This document shows, piece after piece, positions 4,007 through 60,353 of a stretch of DNA of 64,000 nt. The notes below the pieces were generated by a model. The model did not search any database and was not told the DNA's origin. It worked only from the letters and a program-made list of their open reading frames with translations. Each line of letters opens with the position of its first letter. Position 1 is the first letter of the stretch. The stretch covers positions 45,728 through 109,727 of IMG/VR virus record IMGVR_UViG_3300029288_000101. One strand, 5' to 3'. The position numbers were made by a program, and so were the translations under genes. This DNA is from a virus. Taxonomy: Duplodnaviria; Caudoviricetes.

Positions 4007-4743
4007 AAATCTAAATACTCCTTGTAAGTCATAAAGACCACGCCTAAATTTTTAAAATGAGCAATAAACTTGTCATAATAAAAACCTGACAACTCTCCTA
4101 TATTTAAACCTTCTGGTACATAAGGATTATATAAGGTTGGAATGAATTTCTTATAAAACTAAGTGTTATGAGTTAACATTGCTAAAGTTTGCTGTTCTTC
4201 TAATTTCTTTGTAAAAGCTCTTAAAAATCTATTAAAACCAACAAAACCATCTGTCTTTAAATAACCATCTAAAGTTAAATGGAAAGGTGTCAAGATCGAC
4301 TTGAATTTATAATCTTCTGGTTTCATAACTACCATATCGCTACAAATATAATTCAAGCCTAATGAATCTTGAACCAAATAGCCTAACGATTTATTCCATT
4401 TAAAATTACCACCACAAGCAGAAACTCCTAAAATATTTAAATCTAAAGACCTTACTTTTTTCAATTCTTGTAGAGGTGAAGGCAATTCTTTTGAATTAAC
4501 ATGATTTGCAAGATGTAAACCAAATTCCCAACCATTGTTCTCTAAAGTCTTATAAAAGTTTTGATATTTCAATTCAGAAACTCCCCTGTCATATCTTAAG
4601 AATATTGTCGATCTAACTTCATGTTTCCTCTCAATACTAAACATCCTATCAACATTAAGATTTAGACCATGAACCCAATCAAAATCATGTCTTAAAATAA
4701 TAATCTTCTTTTCCTTAAATACTAAAGATTTAACAGTTTCCAT
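4003..4743 (-). pseudogene. CE4/NodB-type polysaccharide deacetylase interrupted by one in-frame TAG (4159-4161)
   Basis: LRHDFD, STIF, GWEFGLH, MLTHN; the frame continues past the TAG to GVVFMTYKEYLDL and ends with an ATGA overlap on the next gene. Confidence 0.7.
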
Positions 4744-5593
4744 TGGTTATAACCTTTGACAAACACCATGCTGAATATGCTCTTACTCTAAAATTAGTGT
4801 GCTGAAGAGAGGTCAAAATCTCTTTGTCTAAAATCAACATTCTTTTATTTAATTTTTCTTCTCCTAAAATCGTTAAAAGCTCATTTTTATAAAGATTATA
4901 AATTAAAAAAGTTATAGGTATAGACCAGCCTATTGAGCCAGAAGATAGCCATTTCTCTTTATCTGAAAAATTTATTAAACTTTTTAAAACTATTTCTTTT
5001 TTATAAATCAAAAATTTCAATCTATAAAAATGATAAAGCATTAAGCCTAAATGAAAGCTATCTTCCAATTTCATTTTTTCCCATTTCTCTTCTTTAAAAT
5101 ATTGATAAGACCAATTACCATTTTCTTGGCTTGATTCTAATAAATTTACTAATTTTTTAGCTCTATCTAATTCTCCACACTCATTAAAAACCAAAGCCGC
5201 TGCTGATGTTACATTTGGAACAGCATAATTTGTTTCTTCACTACAATATTTTTGCCAACCATTTTCATAGCTACCTATAGATTTTATATCTTCAAAAATC
5301 TTATCTGTTAGGTATTTAAATCTTAATTGTTTAAAAAACTCATAGCAAATCCATAAAGTATAAGTGTATAAATTATTTTCTGAACAACGAGCCACATTAA
5401 CTCTGTTTCTCTTATTTAAAATAAGATTTCTTTCCAATACTTTTATCAAACAATCATGATAATCTAATCCAAATATTTGCTTTGCACTTCCTAATAAAGC
5501 AAAGCCATCGGCAGAAGATTTTTCAAAAAAAATATCTGTTTCAGGAAACCTTACTTCAGATATTAATTTCTTAATATCAGATAAAATAATCAT
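4730..5593 (-). CDS. (alpha/alpha)-toroid protein of polysaccharide loci (epimerase/prenyltransferase-like fold)
   Basis: PNVTSAAAL, SQENGNWSY, EDSFHLGLML motifs. Confidence 0.45.
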   Translation of the reverse strand: MIILSDIKKLISEVRFPETDIFFEKSSADGFALLGSAKQIFGLDYHDCLIKVLERNLILNKRNRVNVARCSENNLYTYTLWICYEFFKQLRFKYLTDKIFEDIKSIGSYENGWQKYCSEETNYAVPNVTSAAALVFNECGELDRAKKLVNLLESSQENGNWSYQYFKEEKWEKMKLEDSFHLGLMLYHFYRLKFLIYKKEIVLKSLINFSDKEKWLSSGSIGWSIPITFLIYNLYKNELLTILGEEKLNKRMLILDKEILTSLQHTNFRVRAYSAWCLSKVITNGNC

Positions 5594-6174: not shown

Positions 6175-7035
6175 CTATTTTTCTAAAAATCCTCTGAATT
6201 TTGTTTCTCTTCCTTCTAAAATATCAAACATATTTACCAATCTTTCTCCTGCTGTATGTTTCTTTTGATATAATATTCTTCCTTGAGTTCTTACTCTCTC
6301 ATAGCTCTTTTGTTTTGAAGTTCTTGAGTAAAACTCAATCATCTTCTTTGCTTCCTTTAATTTCTTAAACCAAACCAAATGTTTATGATTTTCAAATAAA
6401 TCTTCGATACCAGGAAACCAAGACACCAAAGCAAAACCACCTGAAGAGAGAATATTGTATAAGCGATTGCTTGTCACAGAATGCATTGGTAGACTAATGC
6501 TCAAATTAAATTTTGAGTTTCTATAAAGAAAGCTCTGGTCTTCTGTGGTTCTTTCTCCGCTAATTATCTTAAGCTTAAAATTTTCAGCAATACCGTCCAA
6601 TAAAATTTTTCTATTACTATGCCAACGAGTTGAATTATTTCCTATAAATAACACTTCCCAGTCTATCTTCCTTCCTTCTGTTGCTTCTGGAATTAAACCA
6701 CACTGAGGCATATAAAACACTGGCTTTTTAAAATATTCTTCATATAGCTTATTATATTCTAAGTTACAAAGAAAAATATAATCACAACCGCAGCCACAAT
6801 TATCTTGTTTAATTAATTTTTCAGGCGGATTCAAATCACACATCCACCATCCCACTTTTGCTTTCGTATTTATTTTAGGAAAAGTTTTATTGTAAAAAAC
6901 AATCAAACTATCGTAATCCTTGACTAAATTTATTTCCGAAAAATCAAAGATCTCTATTCCTGTTGACTTTGCAGCATTAGCGATAGGACCTAATCTTTCT
7001 TTCTTTTCTTTTATTATAAAAGCTCTTTTAAGCAT
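6175..7035 (-). CDS. CgeB-like GT-B glycosyltransferase
   Basis: VLFIG...R, Y..SKF.L, SNRLYNILSSGGF, LFEN.KHLVWF, HT...R. Confidence 0.75.
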   Translation of the reverse strand: MLKRAFIIKEKKERLGPIANAAKSTGIEIFDFSEINLVKDYDSLIVFYNKTFPKINTKAKVGWWMCDLNPPEKLIKQDNCGCGCDYIFLCNLEYNKLYEEYFKKPVFYMPQCGLIPEATEGRKIDWEVLFIGNNSTRWHSNRKILLDGIAENFKLKIISGERTTEDQSFLYRNSKFNLSISLPMHSVTSNRLYNILSSGGFALVSWFPGIEDLFENHKHLVWFKKLKEAKKMIEFYSRTSKQKSYERVRTQGRILYQKKHTAGERLVNMFDILEGRETKFRGFLEK

Positions 7036-35750: not shown

Positions 35751-36057
35751 ATTTATAATTTTTCCAGCGTTGATATGTCAAACATATTAATTTTGAAGAA
35801 AACTCTTTTGCATTATAACCAACTTGAAAATTTTTACTATTATATTTCTTAATATAAAATTCTTTTAATTTTTTTAGAGCTTCTTTTCTACAGCGACAAA
35901 GTATTTCTATTGTAAAATTATCATCACCAAAAATCCTTTGAGCATTTCTGAAATAACGATTATCTATAAATCCATAGCCTTTTTCGCTTATACTTTCTGC
36001 AATAAATACTTTGTTATTTATAATATTTGTTATTTTAAAAATCTTCATAAACACCAA
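35698..36057 (-). CDS. degenerate GIY-YIG endonuclease
   Basis: IFKITNIINNKVFI, G.DNF..EIL, E.YI..YNS...GYN; the conserved YIG is lost. Confidence 0.55.
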   Translation of the reverse strand: MVFMKIFKITNIINNKVFIAESISEKGYGFIDNRYFRNAQRIFGDDNFTIEILCRCRKEALKKLKEFYIKKYNSKNFQVGYNAKEFSSKLICLTYQRWKNYKYEKSEREKKFLSTVLRG

Positions 36058-43486: not shown

Positions 43487-45538
43487 TTATAAAATATAAA
43501 TCTCAGTGTTATTATTTGAATATAAAACGTTTTGTTTATTATAATTATCATATTTTATTTTTCCTGAAATAGTAATCAAATCTTTATTCTTTTTAGCCTC
43601 TTCTAACTTTTTCTTATATTCTTTCCACTCATCAGACCATATCGTGATTAGAATCTGTTCATAATTACTAAGAATTCTCATGCTACCAAACTTACCTTTT
43701 TTAGTTTTTCTTTCAACAAGTGTCAGTATTTCTCCTGCCACTGATGCTCTTTTATAATCTTTTTCAACATCAAAAAAATCTTCTGAATTAATAAACATAC
43801 CAGCGAGTTTCTTTGATTTTTTCTTAATTATTTCAGGAAAACATAAAATGCCAAAGCCTGTAAGTTCTCGTTGTTTTCGTAAAAAATTAAAACCTTTTGA
43901 ATAATAACTTTGTTGCTCTTTAGTTATTAAATCACCAGTAATTTTATGCAAAGATTCTAATAATTCAAATCTATCTGCTGCTTCTTCTATTTCATATAGA
44001 TTATCAAAAGCTCCAGAAAGTATCAAAACCTCTACAATATTCTTTCCACAGTGCTTTCCTTTCATTCTATTAATAAAGTTCTTGAGACCCTTAAACTCTC
44101 CATTCTGTTTTCGTTCCCTTACAATACACTTCACTATTGCTTCTCCGACACCTTTAATACTCTTTAAAGACCAATAAATTACATGACTTTCAACATCACA
44201 AGTAAAAGTTCCTTTAGAATAATTAATGTCTGGAGGAGACAGTGTTAAATCTAAATTTCTCTTCTTTATTTCATTTATCAATGCAGGTATATCCTCTGGC
44301 TTATTATAATTAAAACTAACACAATAAAACTCTTCTGGATAATAGCACTTAAGATATTGACACCAATACGACATTATAGAATAAGAGGCAGAATGCGATC
44401 TGTTATAGCCATAGCCACTAAAAAATAATAATTTTTTCCATATTTTTTTTGCTTCATTTTTCTCACAACCATTCTTTAATGCTCCTGAAATAAATTTCTT
44501 TTCAAATTCTAAAAATTCTTCTTTTTTAAAATGCTTTATCATTGACCTTATGCGATCAGCCTCAGACAAAGAAAAACCACCTAAAATATGCACTGCTTGT
44601 ATAATTTGTTCTTGATAAACAAATAAACCATGAGTTTTTTTAGTTATTTCTTCTAACATATAATCAAACTCAGGCTCTTTTTTACCATGTTTTATTTCAC
44701 CATACAAAATATGACTATTACTTTTCATAGGACCAGGGCGAAACAAAGCGTTCATGGCAATTAAATCTTCCATACTATCTGGCTTTACAAATTTACAATA
44801 ATTCTTTAAACCGCCAGTAGAAAATTGAAATACTTCTTCATTAAAACCTTGAGCAAATATTTTAAACACTTCTTTATCATTCATAGGGATTTTTTCTAAA
44901 ATAATATCTTCTTTCCTATGATTCTTTATTAATTTCAAAATCATATCAAATTTATCCAACAAATTTAATCCTAATAAATCTTCCTTTAAAAATCCTGCTC
45001 TATCTATATACTTCCCTTCCCATTCTGAAACAAGTACATATTGATTAGTTTTCTTATCTAATATCTTTCTAACAGGAACCCATTCAAATATATCTTTTCT
45101 TTCTCCATTAATATCTTTTCTTGGAACTATTAACACTGCTGAAGCATGTATAGAGTTTGTTTTTGGTTGTCCCATTACATTTTTCAACTGATTAATTAGC
45201 TTAAAATTTTCTTGAATAAATTTTGCTAATTCTATAGATTGTTGAGCATACTTAAATAAATCTTCAAATTTATAATCAAGTTGATCGTCTATCTTTTTAG
45301 TTAAAAAATTCATTTGAGAAGGTGTAAAAGATGTGTTAACTCTTGCAAAATCTTTTAAAATGCCCTTTAACTTTAATCTTGTAAAAGTACCAACAGAAGC
45401 AACATAATTCTCACCATATTTGCTTTCTAAATATCTCTTAACATCGTCTTTCCTTATGCTGCTATAATCTACATCAACATCAGGTAATTGGTCGGAACGT
45501 AATTTACTCTCTTTTAATATCTTAATTATTTTTGCCAT
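43487..45538 (-). CDS. dnaE: DNA polymerase III alpha (DnaE), C-terminal part
   Basis: PDVDVDY, HASA, KEDLLGL, VFQF, RPGP, YQEQ, YGYNRSHS, PPDIN, IKGVG, OB fold. Confidence 0.92.
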   Translation of the reverse strand: MAKIIKILKESKLRSDQLPDVDVDYSSIRKDDVKRYLESKYGENYVASVGTFTRLKLKGILKDFARVNTSFTPSQMNFLTKKIDDQLDYKFEDLFKYAQQSIELAKFIQENFKLINQLKNVMGQPKTNSIHASAVLIVPRKDINGERKDIFEWVPVRKILDKKTNQYVLVSEWEGKYIDRAGFLKEDLLGLNLLDKFDMILKLIKNHRKEDIILEKIPMNDKEVFKIFAQGFNEEVFQFSTGGLKNYCKFVKPDSMEDLIAMNALFRPGPMKSNSHILYGEIKHGKKEPEFDYMLEEITKKTHGLFVYQEQIIQAVHILGGFSLSEADRIRSMIKHFKKEEFLEFEKKFISGALKNGCEKNEAKKIWKKLLFFSGYGYNRSHSASYSIMSYWCQYLKCYYPEEFYCVSFNYNKPEDIPALINEIKKRNLDLTLSPPDINYSKGTFTCDVESHVIYWSLKSIKGVGEAIVKCIVRERKQNGEFKGLKNFINRMKGKHCGKNIVEVLILSGAFDNLYEIEEAADRFELLESLHKITGDLITKEQQSYYSKGFNFLRKQRELTGFGILCFPEIIKKKSKKLAGMFINSEDFFDVEKDYKRASVAGEILTLVERKTKKGKFGSMRILSNYEQILITIWSDEWKEYKKKLEEAKKNKDLITISGKIKYDNYNKQNVLYSNNNTEIYIL

Positions 45539-46488
45539 CCATTCCCCCATCTTTCATATTTTCCCCAACGAAATCCACCAGCTTGTTCTTGTTTACCATA
45601 TACACAACTTATAATTTCTCTTGCTTTTATGCCTGTTTCTTCAGAAGCTTCTTTCCAATCTAAATACATCTTAATGTATTTTCCTCTTAAATTCATTTTA
45701 ATAATTTTTTGAGATTTCAAATATTTCCAATAAAAACCACCTGCTATTTTTGTAAAATTACTACCACCAGCACTACATATTGAACCTCTATTAATCCCTG
45801 TCTGTCTAGAAGCATCCCCAGAACCATCATATTCTTTTATAAATTTTTTATTTAGATCAAATTGTAGTATTTTTTGTGACATTCTTTTCCTATTTTTAAT
45901 TTTTTGTTCTTCAGACCATTTATTATTAAAATTAGGATTATTTTCTCCTTTATTTTGTATTTTTTTTATTTTTCTTAAATTCTCTTTTTGTTCTTCAGAC
46001 CATTTATTACCAAAATTAGGATTCTTGTCTCCTATTAAATTTTTTCCTAATTCACTCAAATGTTTAATTAATTCTGGATGTTCTTTATAATATTTCTTTC
46101 TTAATTTTGAAATTTTCTTAAGAGTCTTTTTCCCTCTCTTTGTTTTATAAAATTTTTTTAAAGATTTTTTAAATTTTTCAACAACTTCTGGGATTTTCAT
46201 TGGTGAGCCAGAACCAAATTTATTTGCTATTCCAGGAAGAATATTATAGCCTATCTTATTATCTGTAGAGTTAAATTCTTTTATAAAATATTTTTCATAT
46301 AAATCTAATTGTTCTTGTGTCTTACATTTTATTAATGTAATTCTTTCAAAACTTTCTTCTCCATATTTCTTAATAGCATATTTAATATTTCTTCCTGATC
46401 CTATATAATTTTGATCTTCTCCAGAATATTGTCCAATATAAATTTTGCTATTAATTAAATTTGTTGTTAAATAAATAATCCCTTTCAT
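45526..46488 (-). mobile_element. GIY-YIG homing endonuclease with NUMOD3/NUMOD1 repeats, inserted in dnaE
   Basis: GIIY...KIYIGQ, Y.GSG, E...I, GYN; two G..NPNF..KWSEE repeats; two AGGF.W domains. Confidence 0.9.
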
Positions 46489-46505
46489 AATTAGCTTTAA
46501 CTAAT

Positions 46506-48134
46506 TTATACCTGATATTGACTAAGACTTTTAAAATCTTCTTTTGTTAGCTCTTTCCCTTCTTTTAAAAATTCAAAATCTTTTTCTGGAATGTTAAATT
46601 TTCTTCCATCATCTAATTCAACAATCAATCTTTTCTCCAAAGTTCCTCTCGTTTCATTCAAAAATCTTTCAAACAATAAATCATATTTAATCGGATCTAC
46701 AGTTGTTATATCAATTAAAAAAGCAACTAAAGAGCCAGCTACTGAACCACGAGCATTGCCAACTCTTATTTTATTACTCTTTGCCCAACTTATTATATCA
46801 AAATTTATCAAAAAATAATCAAGAAAACCTAATCTTAAAATAAAATCTCTTTCATATTGCATTCGCTCTTTATATTCTTTCAATTTACTTTTTTCTACCT
46901 TCCCTAATATTTTCTTTCGCCACCCATCTTGAATTAAATAATCAAACAATTCAGTCTTATCTCCCTCATAAGGAAACAAAGGTAATTTTGGGATACCAAG
47001 TTGTATTTTAAAGTTACATTCTTCAACAATTTTATTTACATTATTAATTGCAAGTTCTAATATTTGCTCGCCTTCTAAATCATTATATTTCTTCCCTTCT
47101 GGAAAATAATCAATTAAATTTCTCACTGATTCTTCTACATCTTTATAATGCTCATTTTTACTATAAGGTCTAAATTCTCCTGCAAGTTTTCCTAAACTTA
47201 ATCTGGACTCATATTCTTCTGGTTCAAGATAATAAGAGTCATTTATTAAAACTGGTTCTATTGTGTCAGCAAACTCCTCCAAATATTGCTTGATGGAAAA
47301 CAAATGTCTCTTCTCAAACTCAAGGTTTTCATATTTGACTGAATCCATTTGAAAATATACTTCATCAAAGCACTTCTTTAATAACTTAACATAGCTTTTA
47401 TTCAAAAAACTTTCCTTGAACAAAACTAAAATTAAGCCTGTTCCAAATTCCAAAAATTGTTTCTCTTTTATAAATCCTTCATTGATTACATTTATTTCTT
47501 TATTTATCCTTAATAAATTTTTCCATCCTTCTTCATTTTTAACGTATAATTTTACATCATATTTTTCATTTTCAGTGTTTTCATCATAAAGTATTGTTAC
47601 TGTCTCTCCTAATATTGGTTTTATTCCTTTTTCTGTACAGGATATTTGAAAAGGTAATGTTCCTGCTAAAGAATTTTTATCTACTATTCCTAAACTTTTA
47701 TGCCCTAAAAATATTGCCTTTTGACACCACGCTTTTGCTGAATGAGAACCTGAAAGGAGTTCATATTCATCGTGAACACCAAGATGATTAAAAATAATTT
47801 TATTTTTATTCTCCGCTTCTCCAAGATATTTAAAATCAATCAAAACGCAAGGAACAATTAAATTTCCTTGTTTGTCTTCTAATTCTAAATTTACTTTTGA
47901 ATAATAATATTGACCACCAAAAAGAAAAACAACAAATTCAATCCTATTATTTTGTATTGATATTTGTTCTTTTTCTGTTAAAACCAAATTAAAATCCTTA
48001 TCAATAATAATTTCCTTTTCAGATAAAAGTAAAAAGTTGCCAAATCCTTTTATTGAATTAATATTATCTTCTAAGAAATCTTGTTGAAGCTGTATTTTAT
48101 TTCTTTTAACCCAATTATTAAATCGTTCTAACAT
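46506..48134 (-). CDS. dnaE: DNA polymerase III alpha (DnaE), N-terminal part (PHP plus start of palm)
   Basis: HLGVHDEYELL.G, KPILGE, NDSYY, YFL, RGSVAGSLVA...DP....LFERFLN. Confidence 0.92.
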   Translation of the reverse strand: MLERFNNWVKRNKIQLQQDFLEDNINSIKGFGNFLLLSEKEIIIDKDFNLVLTEKEQISIQNNRIEFVVFLFGGQYYYSKVNLELEDKQGNLIVPCVLIDFKYLGEAENKNKIIFNHLGVHDEYELLSGSHSAKAWCQKAIFLGHKSLGIVDKNSLAGTLPFQISCTEKGIKPILGETVTILYDENTENEKYDVKLYVKNEEGWKNLLRINKEINVINEGFIKEKQFLEFGTGLILVLFKESFLNKSYVKLLKKCFDEVYFQMDSVKYENLEFEKRHLFSIKQYLEEFADTIEPVLINDSYYLEPEEYESRLSLGKLAGEFRPYSKNEHYKDVEESVRNLIDYFPEGKKYNDLEGEQILELAINNVNKIVEECNFKIQLGIPKLPLFPYEGDKTELFDYLIQDGWRKKILGKVEKSKLKEYKERMQYERDFILRLGFLDYFLINFDIISWAKSNKIRVGNARGSVAGSLVAFLIDITTVDPIKYDLLFERFLNETRGTLEKRLIVELDDGRKFNIPEKDFEFLKEGKELTKEDFKSLSQYQV

Positions 48135-54862: not shown

Positions 54863-54934
54863 TAGTCTGTAGGAGAATTGAACTCCTATTCCCAGGTTGA
54901 AAACCTGATGTACTAACCATTATACGAACAGACC
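54863..54934 (-). tRNA. tRNA-Glu (TTC)
   Basis: Full cloverleaf GGTCTGT...ACAGACT-A, anticodon loop TT-TTC-AA, T loop TTCAATT; CCA not encoded. Confidence 0.92.
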
Positions 54935-59555: not shown

Positions 59556-60353
59556 TTATTTCTTCTTTTTATTTCTTTTCTTTCTATATTTAGGGTCTTC
59601 CCAAAGTTTTTTAACAGACTCACTAATTTTTACTCTCTGTTCTAAAGAAATAGTCTTTCCTAAATTAGCTCTTCTTATATTTTCTTTATGTTCTTCTGTA
59701 AGTTTCATTCCTATTCTCGCTTTGCTTATATTTTTACGATGTTCTTTAGAACATTTTTTATTTTTTCTATTTTTACAAAATTTTTCTTCTGCTTCAGGGT
59801 GTTCTTTAAAATATTTTTTTCTAGCTTTACTTATTTTCTTTTTGGTTTTCTCTGAATGGTGCTTATTTTTCATAGGGTGTCCGTCCCTCTCAATTTGTTT
59901 TTTTGTTGATTTAGACATTTTCTTTTTTGCTTTCTTTGTATGGCATCTTCTCTTCATTGGACTATCTTGTGTTAAAAATCTTCTCTTTTGAGCCTTACTG
60001 CAATTTTCTTTTTGTTTTTCTGTCCATTTAAATCCTGAAGTTCCCTCTCCTCCATCTGTCATATTATAACCAAAATCGTGACCATATCTATTTATATTAG
60101 TTTTAAATTTTCTAATATAAATTCTTTCCCAAACTTTTGCTTCTTTTATTGTTTTACAAACTCTTATCACTTCTTTTTTAAAATTATTTCTTCCATATTT
60201 TCTTATAGCGTTATGGAAACAATAATTGCTATTAAACTTGAAAGTATTTTCACAATGCCCTTTCCATCTCTTTTGTAAAGTCCCACTTGAATAACCAAAA
60301 TATTTTTTATTATCAATTATGTTTGTTATTTTATAAACTATCATAATAAGCAT
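59556..60353 (-). mobile_element. free-standing GIY-YIG homing endonuclease with NUMOD3 repeats
   Basis: IVYKITN...K.YFG, RW..H, AIRKYG..NF, E..YI, GYNMT.GGEG, H(S/T)E..K.KIS repeats. Confidence 0.88.

Follow-up and report, generated by a model that had tools for sequence, protein, structure and literature searches.

The dnaE gene is carried by two open reading frames

The stretch of DNA analysed here (the window) comprises 64,000 nucleotides, positions 45,728 to 109,727 of the IMG/VR virus record IMGVR_UViG_3300029288_000101. It carries dnaE, the gene for the alpha subunit of DNA polymerase III (Pol III), in two adjacent pieces with a homing-endonuclease gene between them. The source record is 109.7 kb long, has a G+C content of 27% and belongs to an uncultured virus. 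Its DnaE is most similar to the DnaEs of Bacteroides, Chryseobacterium, Cellulophaga and Tenacibaculum phages; a megablast search of the GenBank phages with the locus gave no match. The locus contains the following features.

46506..48134, minus strand: dnaE N-half, 542 amino acids (aa), consisting of the N-terminal region, PHP and the first part of the palm up to FERFLNETR, followed by the tail
46647..46673, minus strand: FERFLNETR, the last conserved DnaE motif before the break
46509..46646, minus strand: tail, the 46 aa after R496 of the N-half
46489..46505, minus strand: spacer of 17 nucleotides (nt) from the N-half stop to the endonuclease ATG, holding a 7-bp A/U hairpin
45526..46488, minus strand: free-standing GIY-YIG/NUMOD homing-endonuclease gene, 320 aa
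43487..45538, minus strand: dnaE C-half, 683 aa from the ATG at 45538, with the rest of the palm, the thumb, the fingers and HhH
45488..45538, minus strand: head, 17 residues, MAKIIKILKESK and then LRSDQ; an alternative upstream ATG is located at 45550
45467..45484, minus strand: PDVDVD, the catalytic aspartate motif of the palm, placed by alignments and by the DNA_pol3_alpha profile, which resumes at 99

In Pfam the N-half matches PHP (6.8e-16) and positions 6-99 of the DNA_pol3_alpha profile (1.5e-31), and the C-half matches positions 99-260 of the same profile (5.1e-25), DNA_pol3_finger (4.4e-43) and HHH_6 (1e-20). The parts of a Pol III alpha protein (DnaE, C-family), namely PHP, a palm with PDxDxD, fingers and HhH, are therefore all present, spread over two open reading frames (ORFs). 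Since the Pfam profile is broken at position 99, a single Pol III alpha gene has been cleanly cut between FERFLNETR and LPDVDVD. Residues F488, E489, R490, F491, L492 and R496 of the N-half, directly before the tail, are invariant or nearly invariant (alignment A1). The original prediction, made from the sequence of the window, had placed the break between FERFLNETR and PDVDVD and had stated that these motifs are only a few residues apart in intact DnaE; the ORFs and the split profile agree with the first statement, and the distance of 3-13 residues from FERFLNxxR to PDxDxD in fused relatives agrees with the second. It had also described a GIY-YIG gene that fills the gap with 17 nt before it and an overlap with the C-half, which is the arrangement found. 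The 3′ end of the endonuclease gene overlaps the start of the C-half by 13 or 25 nt, depending on the ATG. At its longest the C-half ORF extends over 43487-45550 (687 aa); the second ATG at 45538, where the public gene call P0242 begins, gives 683 aa and is probably the translation start, located inside the 3′ end of the endonuclease gene. The 7-bp hairpin before the endonuclease ATG was rejected as a real element, as it folds no better than shuffled sequences (z -0.5).

Both endonuclease junctions are spanned by identical contigs from four runs belonging to three studies (landfill and groundwater), so the arrangement cannot be put down to assembly. Joints between contigs that bypass the endonuclease were also seen, with sides of only 20-26 nt and 85% similarity, and were treated as spurious. 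Over the pieces compared between window positions 44800 and 47200, the same phage is present without base differences in landfill metagenomes (two studies) and groundwater metagenomes (third study). None of the runs listed as containing it is an RNA data set.

The split is shared by related phages

Among the relatives found with the N-half the best 120 (clusters) were examined; they are mostly 510-590 aa long and contain PHP and the first palm part only. Altogether, 104 of these 120 end just after FERFLxxxR with a tail, 71 with a short form and 33 with a long form; the 71 short-form clusters include the window's own and one truncated fused form. In addition, 80 related IMG/VR loci were classified as fused or split. 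Forty-nine encode a fused DnaE with a linker of 3, 5 or 12 residues, one (L010) encodes a fused DnaE with an uninterrupted insertion of 57 residues, and 30 are split at the site (14 with abutting cistrons, 13 with one to three genes at the junction and three located at a contig end). The split is not private to the window phage; it is a family-wide trait. Abutting cistrons often show an ATGA overlap, and translation of the C-half is in these relatives probably coupled to termination of the N-half.

One of the split genes belongs to a cultured phage, Cellulophaga phage phi13:1, in which gp038 and gp039 are 1 nt apart and carry a homologous tail and head. Phages phiST and phi19:2, like phi13:1 members of Cbastvirus, have the same split site in gp038/gp039 as phi13:1 and the window, with a homologous tail and a homologous head starting with MKIINIE. 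Unlike the window, these phages have no endonuclease between the cistrons, which are annotated as two 'DNA polymerase III alpha subunit' genes. In our literature searches no paper discussing the split dnaE of the Cellulophaga phages was found.

A break at the catalytic site would normally be inactivating, and the split dnaE could be a decaying pseudogene in a phage that uses another polymerase. This explanation is barely credible, since each half is a full-length reading frame without interruption and no Pfam domain is missing, more than 100 diverged clusters, one cultured phage included, have retained the split, and the sequences are identical across the three studies.

Tail and head are conserved protein pieces

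The first six residues of the tail, GTLEKR, match the linker of fused relatives, thus about 40 of the 46 tail residues are extra. The linker-like GTLEKR is followed by a block-B-like hairpin starting with LIVELDDGRKFNIP and by a conserved acidic C-terminal segment. In the C-half the extra residues amount to approximately 12 (MAKIIKILKESK) ahead of the linker-like LRSDQ. The window head reads MAKIIKILKE, a basic strand with the family pattern M-K-[IV]-x-x-[IV], and heads starting with this pattern were found in 31 C-half clusters and in every locus read. Homologous tails occur, besides the window's own, in 70 short-form and 33 long-form clusters. They share h-x-h-x-L-E-D/N-G, form another hairpin after it and close with an acidic stretch of the type E-L-x-x-G-D-D-I or L-D-I-D-I-D. 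The window tail is 27-34% identical to those of its nearest split relatives (40-46% in the core). A tail of about 45 aa on the N-half and the short head MAKIIKILKE on the C-half had been noticed before from the window alone, and both turn out to be conserved protein across clusters. The two pieces also differ in charge: the net charge of the window tail is -2 and that of the first 14 aa of the window head +4, and among 21 pairs the tails are net negative in all 21 and the heads (first 14 residues) net positive in 20.

The long family (L025-L048, 33 clusters) has tails of approximately 80 residues that begin with C/A/G-G-L straight after PER and carry L-E-N-G-K...D-x-D-A...A-D-E-L-x-x-G-D-D-I; its heads are 33 residues long and contain V-x-D-C-F-V..G-Y. 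The 'DIDID' ends of some tails were considered as a remnant of a duplicated catalytic motif, an idea that was rejected because their counterpart in the long family is the 'GDDI(L/V)F' strand. Alignments A2 and A9 had misaligned the acidic last strand of the tail with PDxDxD or with the head and were not used for folding. In L038, L040 and L041 (at approximately 6216-6520) the head ORF (MKIKELKK...SGSLPD) runs into a stop, and ELDIDTD is located about 60 nt further on in another frame; this displaced catalytic motif might belong to a third piece or result from a frameshift or from an error in sequencing.

Fused DnaEs contain tail and head as one insertion

Tail and head are also found joined, as an uninterrupted in-frame insertion of 44-72 residues in fused DnaEs (L010/P0123, P0124, Bacteroides phage SJC03 and 11 further clusters). 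The insertion thus functions in cis without being removed. In insertion-less relatives, among them those nearest to the window (L001, L005, P0002, P0003), there is just a linker of 12 residues, and its two ends correspond to GTLEKR in the tail and to LRSDQ in the head. This linker may be the scar of a precise loss or the pre-insertion state. In L005-L016 and P0125-P0130 the linker after FERFLNxxR is 12 residues long with the consensus V-S-G-E-R-A-K-S-A-D-S-M; in distant DnaEs it has 3-5 residues. A fused allele of the long family was searched for and none was found, which is weak evidence.

On a tree of the N-half core (FastTree, 82 rows) the window clusters with the insertion-less L001, L005 and L006, and the presence of the insertion needs at least eight changes, at least six of which are forced by well-supported branches. 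This patchy pattern could stem from precise losses that happened repeatedly or from an insertion that spread, be it together with its endonuclease or alone. Repeated loss or spread would each be expected of an intein-like element.

GIY-YIG endonucleases are often encoded by introns in phage polymerase genes. The window endonuclease might thus be located inside a group I intron, with RNA splicing restoring dnaE and with tail and head being read-through of the intron ends. A search of the 1.5 kb junction with the Rfam model Intron_gpI gave no match even at E 10, although this model can miss introns that hold an ORF of 1 kb. An Rfam scan of the whole window likewise revealed no group I intron; it returned only a chance miRNA match and a tRNA (61.8 bits, window 54863-54934, minus strand). 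Tail and head are moreover conserved as amino acids where the cistrons abut or overlap, an arrangement that leaves no room for an intron in these relatives, and they are in-frame protein in the fused relatives. With uninterrupted in-frame versions and no Rfam intron signal, RNA splicing is not needed to explain the locus, and we regard an intron as extremely improbable.

Splicing residues are not conserved at the boundaries

In line with the original prediction, which had noted the lack of Cys/Ser1, of TxxH and of a terminal His-Asn, none of these was found at either boundary as a conserved feature of the window and its relatives. At the N boundary, position 1 of the short-form tails varies (T, S, L, K, R, M, G) and there is no conserved Cys/Ser nucleophile; a Cys straight after PER is present only in some long-family tails (L033, L042, L045). 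The T-x-x-H motif is replaced by P-E-K-D in the window and by D-x-D-A in the long family. The C boundary has no His-Asn followed by Cys, Ser or Thr: the window reads ...RSDQ and then LPDVDVD, the long-family heads end with H-G-S, H-S-A or G-G-Q before L-P-D without a terminal Asn, and the residue preceding PDxDxD is L, M or A. Because of the missing conserved nucleophile at the boundaries, the replaced T-x-x-H and the missing terminal Asn, tail and head (the tags) cannot be counted as a splicing-competent intein. Whether they descend from an intein is a separate question.

These observations bear on the possibility that the two halves are joined by protein trans-splicing with an unusual chemistry, the tags being a working, highly reduced split intein. 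The Hint-like sequence and fold signals described below and the Cys of the three long-family tails would fit such a scenario, and there are fractured DnaE genes in which an endonuclease gene is flanked by split inteins that work (PMC2677866). On the other hand, besides the residues missing at both boundaries, the short-family remnant is without blocks A, F and G, and the uninterrupted versions, which must stay in the protein, are without the same residues. We therefore consider trans-splicing very unlikely.

Tail and head give weak Hint-like signals

The profile of the long tails (A5) was compared with 177,635 PDB sequences. The top three matches were all inteins, TFIIB (5o9j), Pab PolC (2lcj) and the Aes123 PolB1 split intein (9hth), each aligned at block B (E 0.2-0.35), the tails having D-x-D-A where inteins have T-x-x-H. 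The same blocks align with the split N-intein of the related phage DnaE P0082 (pairwise E 0.005). The profile of the short tails, which includes the window (A7), matches the Pab PolC intein across the whole tail (E 0.002) and also the gp41-1, PI-PkoII, TFIIB, KlbA and DnaE inteins, with the intein matches spanning profile positions 14-57. The best PDB matches of A7 are Tudor (KDM4A/B, E 6e-4) and Sm-like (MTH11) domains, which cover only the LEDG hairpin at positions 12-40. Comparison of A7 with A5 using hhalign gave a probability of 97%, to which the shared FERF motif adds.

Structure prediction with AlphaFold2 (AF2) of the uninterrupted L010 insertion gave an all-beta model of five strands at low confidence (predicted local distance difference test, pLDDT, 59). 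Foldseek with this model placed inteins at the top ranks at E around 1, and in an unbiased fold search with it against 48,161 chains all top nine ranks were Hint domains, with no SH3 or Tudor domain listed among the top 50. The structural alignments stop shortly after the position at which gp41-1 and Npu DnaE are split (model residues to 61-62, chain residues to 104 and 114). Judged from these range ends, and not from a residue-by-residue alignment, the head-equivalent strand would fit the first strand of the C-intein. Tail and head seem to be separated at the site where split inteins are divided and endonuclease domains of inteins insert. For the window tail AF2 predicted a hairpin and two helices at low confidence (pLDDT 63), and this model was judged too weak and too partial as a query for the fold search.

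Genuine inteins are present at other sites in this group of proteins. The N-half of P0082 ends, after GRG, in a true split N-intein with Cys1 and TKDH (residues ~473-565), located at another DnaE site, and P0123, the L010 protein, has an Intein_splicing match at residues ~945-1024 besides its Hint-like remnant. The phage DnaE lineage has thus been invaded by inteins repeatedly. Altogether, the tests for a descent of tail and head from the Hint fold are weak but concordant.

A proposed splicing-dead split-intein remnant as candidate clasp

The explanation that we favour, and hold to be moderately probable, is that dnaE is a two-cistron gene, the halves of which are never joined as RNA or as protein and reassemble via the splicing-dead remnant of a split mini-intein (Hint). 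The acidic tail of 46 residues and the basic head of 12-17 residues would form a two-piece module, seated in the palm loop just before the strand bearing the catalytic aspartates. At this location the break would part two palm regions that need tight packing. Tail and head would pair as intein halves do and hold the polypeptides in register without a bond being formed, and the GIY-YIG gene would be lodged in the intercistronic junction as one of several kinds of mobile genes there. That it is this module which holds the halves together we infer from conservation, charge and homology of the two pieces.

Several points weigh against this explanation. Each of the Hint tests is sub-threshold on its own, and the short-form remnant has approximately 57-65 residues, which is under half a Hint domain. 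Pfam searches with ten tails and heads gave nothing significant and no Hint or intein family (the best Intein_splicing match, in L024, had an E value of 0.063), and the long-family head profile alone had no intein match in the PDB. The LEDG hairpin also occurs in Tudor and Sm-like barrels, which rank above the inteins in the A7 search, though with shorter matches. The second half of the window tail is predicted to be helical (with low confidence) rather than beta, thus the sub-lineage of the window may have remodelled the interface. The palm interface is extensive and might suffice without the tags. The original prediction had proposed that the pieces resemble intein block B and the first strand of C-intein fragments and that they act as a beta-strand clasp. 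The first part stands in so far as the tail maps to block B through to 'EL..GD' and the head equivalent to the split-intein point, albeit in tests below threshold. For the putative clasp, conservation of the tags and their Hint-like signals are in favour, whereas the helices predicted at low confidence would not be in keeping with a pure beta-strand structure.

A different explanation would be that tail and head are the halves of an ordinary small beta insertion (SH3-, Tudor- or Sm-like) without intein ancestry, in a gene that was cut inside this insertion by an endonuclease or by chance and is reassembled by the palm interface. The leading position of Tudor and Sm-like domains among the short-tail matches would be expected in this case, as would the weak Pfam hints of the tails to SH3, Tudor and PhnA-like families, the uninterrupted versions in fused DnaEs and the sub-threshold scores of every Hint test. 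However, the Tudor and Sm-like matches are confined to the hairpin while inteins span the whole tail, the top three matches of the long family are all inteins, and in the fold search Hint domains occupy the first nine ranks with SH3 and Tudor missing from the top 50. In addition, the gene seems to be broken at the very site where inteins are split, a site at which endonuclease genes are found repeatedly, and the patchy tree with its eight or more changes is as expected of a mobile in-frame element. An ordinary beta insertion is therefore in our view rather unlikely. The original prediction had named alignment of the tags to a non-intein DnaE insertion as evidence that would count against it; fused alleles with an uninterrupted insertion were indeed found, which goes half of the way, but this insertion is itself Hint-like.

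Endonuclease and other genes at the junction

The middle ORF of the window matches the PHROG 314 'homing endonuclease' (3.7e-31) and NUMOD1 (25.3 bits, above the Pfam cut-off of 22.8). For the GIY-YIG domain the Pfam score stays under the threshold (17 versus 22.6 bits, E 0.007), with the motifs IIY...YIG, Arg, Glu and Asn visible in the sequence. By these features the ORF can be classified as a GIY-YIG homing endonuclease that is apparently intact. It is 44% identical to the endonuclease found at the same junction in L017, which makes an endonuclease lineage tied to this site plausible. Two further stretches of the window, 60051-60341 and 35812-36042 (minus), show weak similarity to the GIY-YIG domain at the N terminus of the junction endonuclease (E 1.5e-7 and 2.8e-6, identity ~30%) and probably are additional homing-endonuclease genes of this phage.

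GIY-YIG endonucleases are present at the junction in the window, L017, L024, L032 and L050, and HNH endonucleases in L028 and the L042 group. DNA methyltransferase genes, with or without HNH endonucleases, occupy the junction in L030, L034 and the L042 group (L042-L048), and L025 has a gene for a Dda-like helicase there (4146-5441). By its gene contents the dnaE junction acts as a general landing site for mobile genes, beyond homing endonucleases. In many other relatives, for instance L003, L013, L020 and L045, the split and the tags are present without an endonuclease between the halves. The GIY-YIG gene is thus a tenant of an older junction, and this copy need not have caused the break, which tempers the earlier view of the endonuclease as the fracturing agent.

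We infer that the combination of tail, endonuclease and head was or is mobile. More specifically, and only as a tentative idea, it might be a mobile cassette, in which the endonuclease cuts an insertion-less dnaE at the catalytic-site sequence and repair copies in all three parts. Such an invasion could conceivably break the gene and at the same time supply the clasp that keeps the polymerase working. Non-covalent reassembly would possibly replace splicing here, and might later persist as a permanent two-subunit polymerase. The patchy tree, the 44% identity between the window and L017 endonucleases and the 12-residue linker of insertion-less relatives are compatible with a cassette without demonstrating it.

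Discussion

Genes broken in a comparable way have been described as 'fractured genes', in which split inteins flank a free-standing homing-endonuclease gene, with three DnaE loci among them (Dassa et al., 2009, PMC2677866). The window shares with them two adjacent ORFs of a replication enzyme on the same strand, a GIY-YIG gene in between that overlaps the downstream ORF, and intein-like pieces at the broken ends, with an acidic N piece and a basic C piece, a polarity reported for some natural split inteins (PMC2677866). A complete catalytic split intein is not found in the window, however. The split inteins of fractured genes keep six Hint motifs and five catalytic residues and splice (PMC2677866), whereas the window is without Cys1, TxxH and a terminal Asn with a nucleophile. 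The pieces are also smaller, 46 + 17 residues in the window and ~80 + 33 in the long family compared with roughly 100 + 40, and they occur without an endonuclease and as one uninterrupted insertion as well. The cyanobacterial split DnaE intein (Ssp, Npu) is active, encoded at separate loci, has ~102 + 36 residues and no endonuclease gene, and sits at a different insertion site than the window break (PMC2677866).

In nrdA of phage Aeh1, split by mobE, and in the split gp43 of T4-like phages the pieces made by an endonuclease work unspliced, according to the passages in which these cases are cited (PMC2677866). As far as those passages go, the window resembles them in that two neighbouring genes encode an essential enzyme and an endonuclease gene lies within or close to the gap. 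It differs in the conserved Hint-like tags at both broken ends. To our knowledge, no intein-derived end pieces have been described for Aeh1 nrdA or T4-like gp43. The mode of action proposed for the window, halves that bind without splicing, is that of split inteins engineered to be splicing-dead, which serve as affinity or dimerisation tags and are full-length proteins mutated in the laboratory. Unlike them, the window version would be natural, much reduced and fixed in an essential enzyme, if our reading holds.

In the literature searched we came across no report of a natural split-intein remnant that does not splice and is used in this way, nor of this split DnaE. If true, the locus would represent a natural end-state of the life cycle of inteins and homing endonucleases for which these searches gave no description: a split intein, rather than being precisely lost, would have lost its chemistry and yet been kept as a heterodimerisation module in the palm of a replicative polymerase. 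Intermediates are apparently available, namely the longer form, sometimes with Cys1, the short form, uninterrupted remnants, and junctions with and without endonucleases. The break beside the catalytic aspartates makes this polymerase a testable case of an essential enzyme tolerating such an interruption. If the reading holds, the family would also be a source of small, cysteine-free, naturally selected pairs of binding tags for protein engineering. The two-piece DnaE is present in more than 100 clusters, mostly of Bacteroidota-type phages, and its genes should be annotated as subunits, not as pseudogenes.

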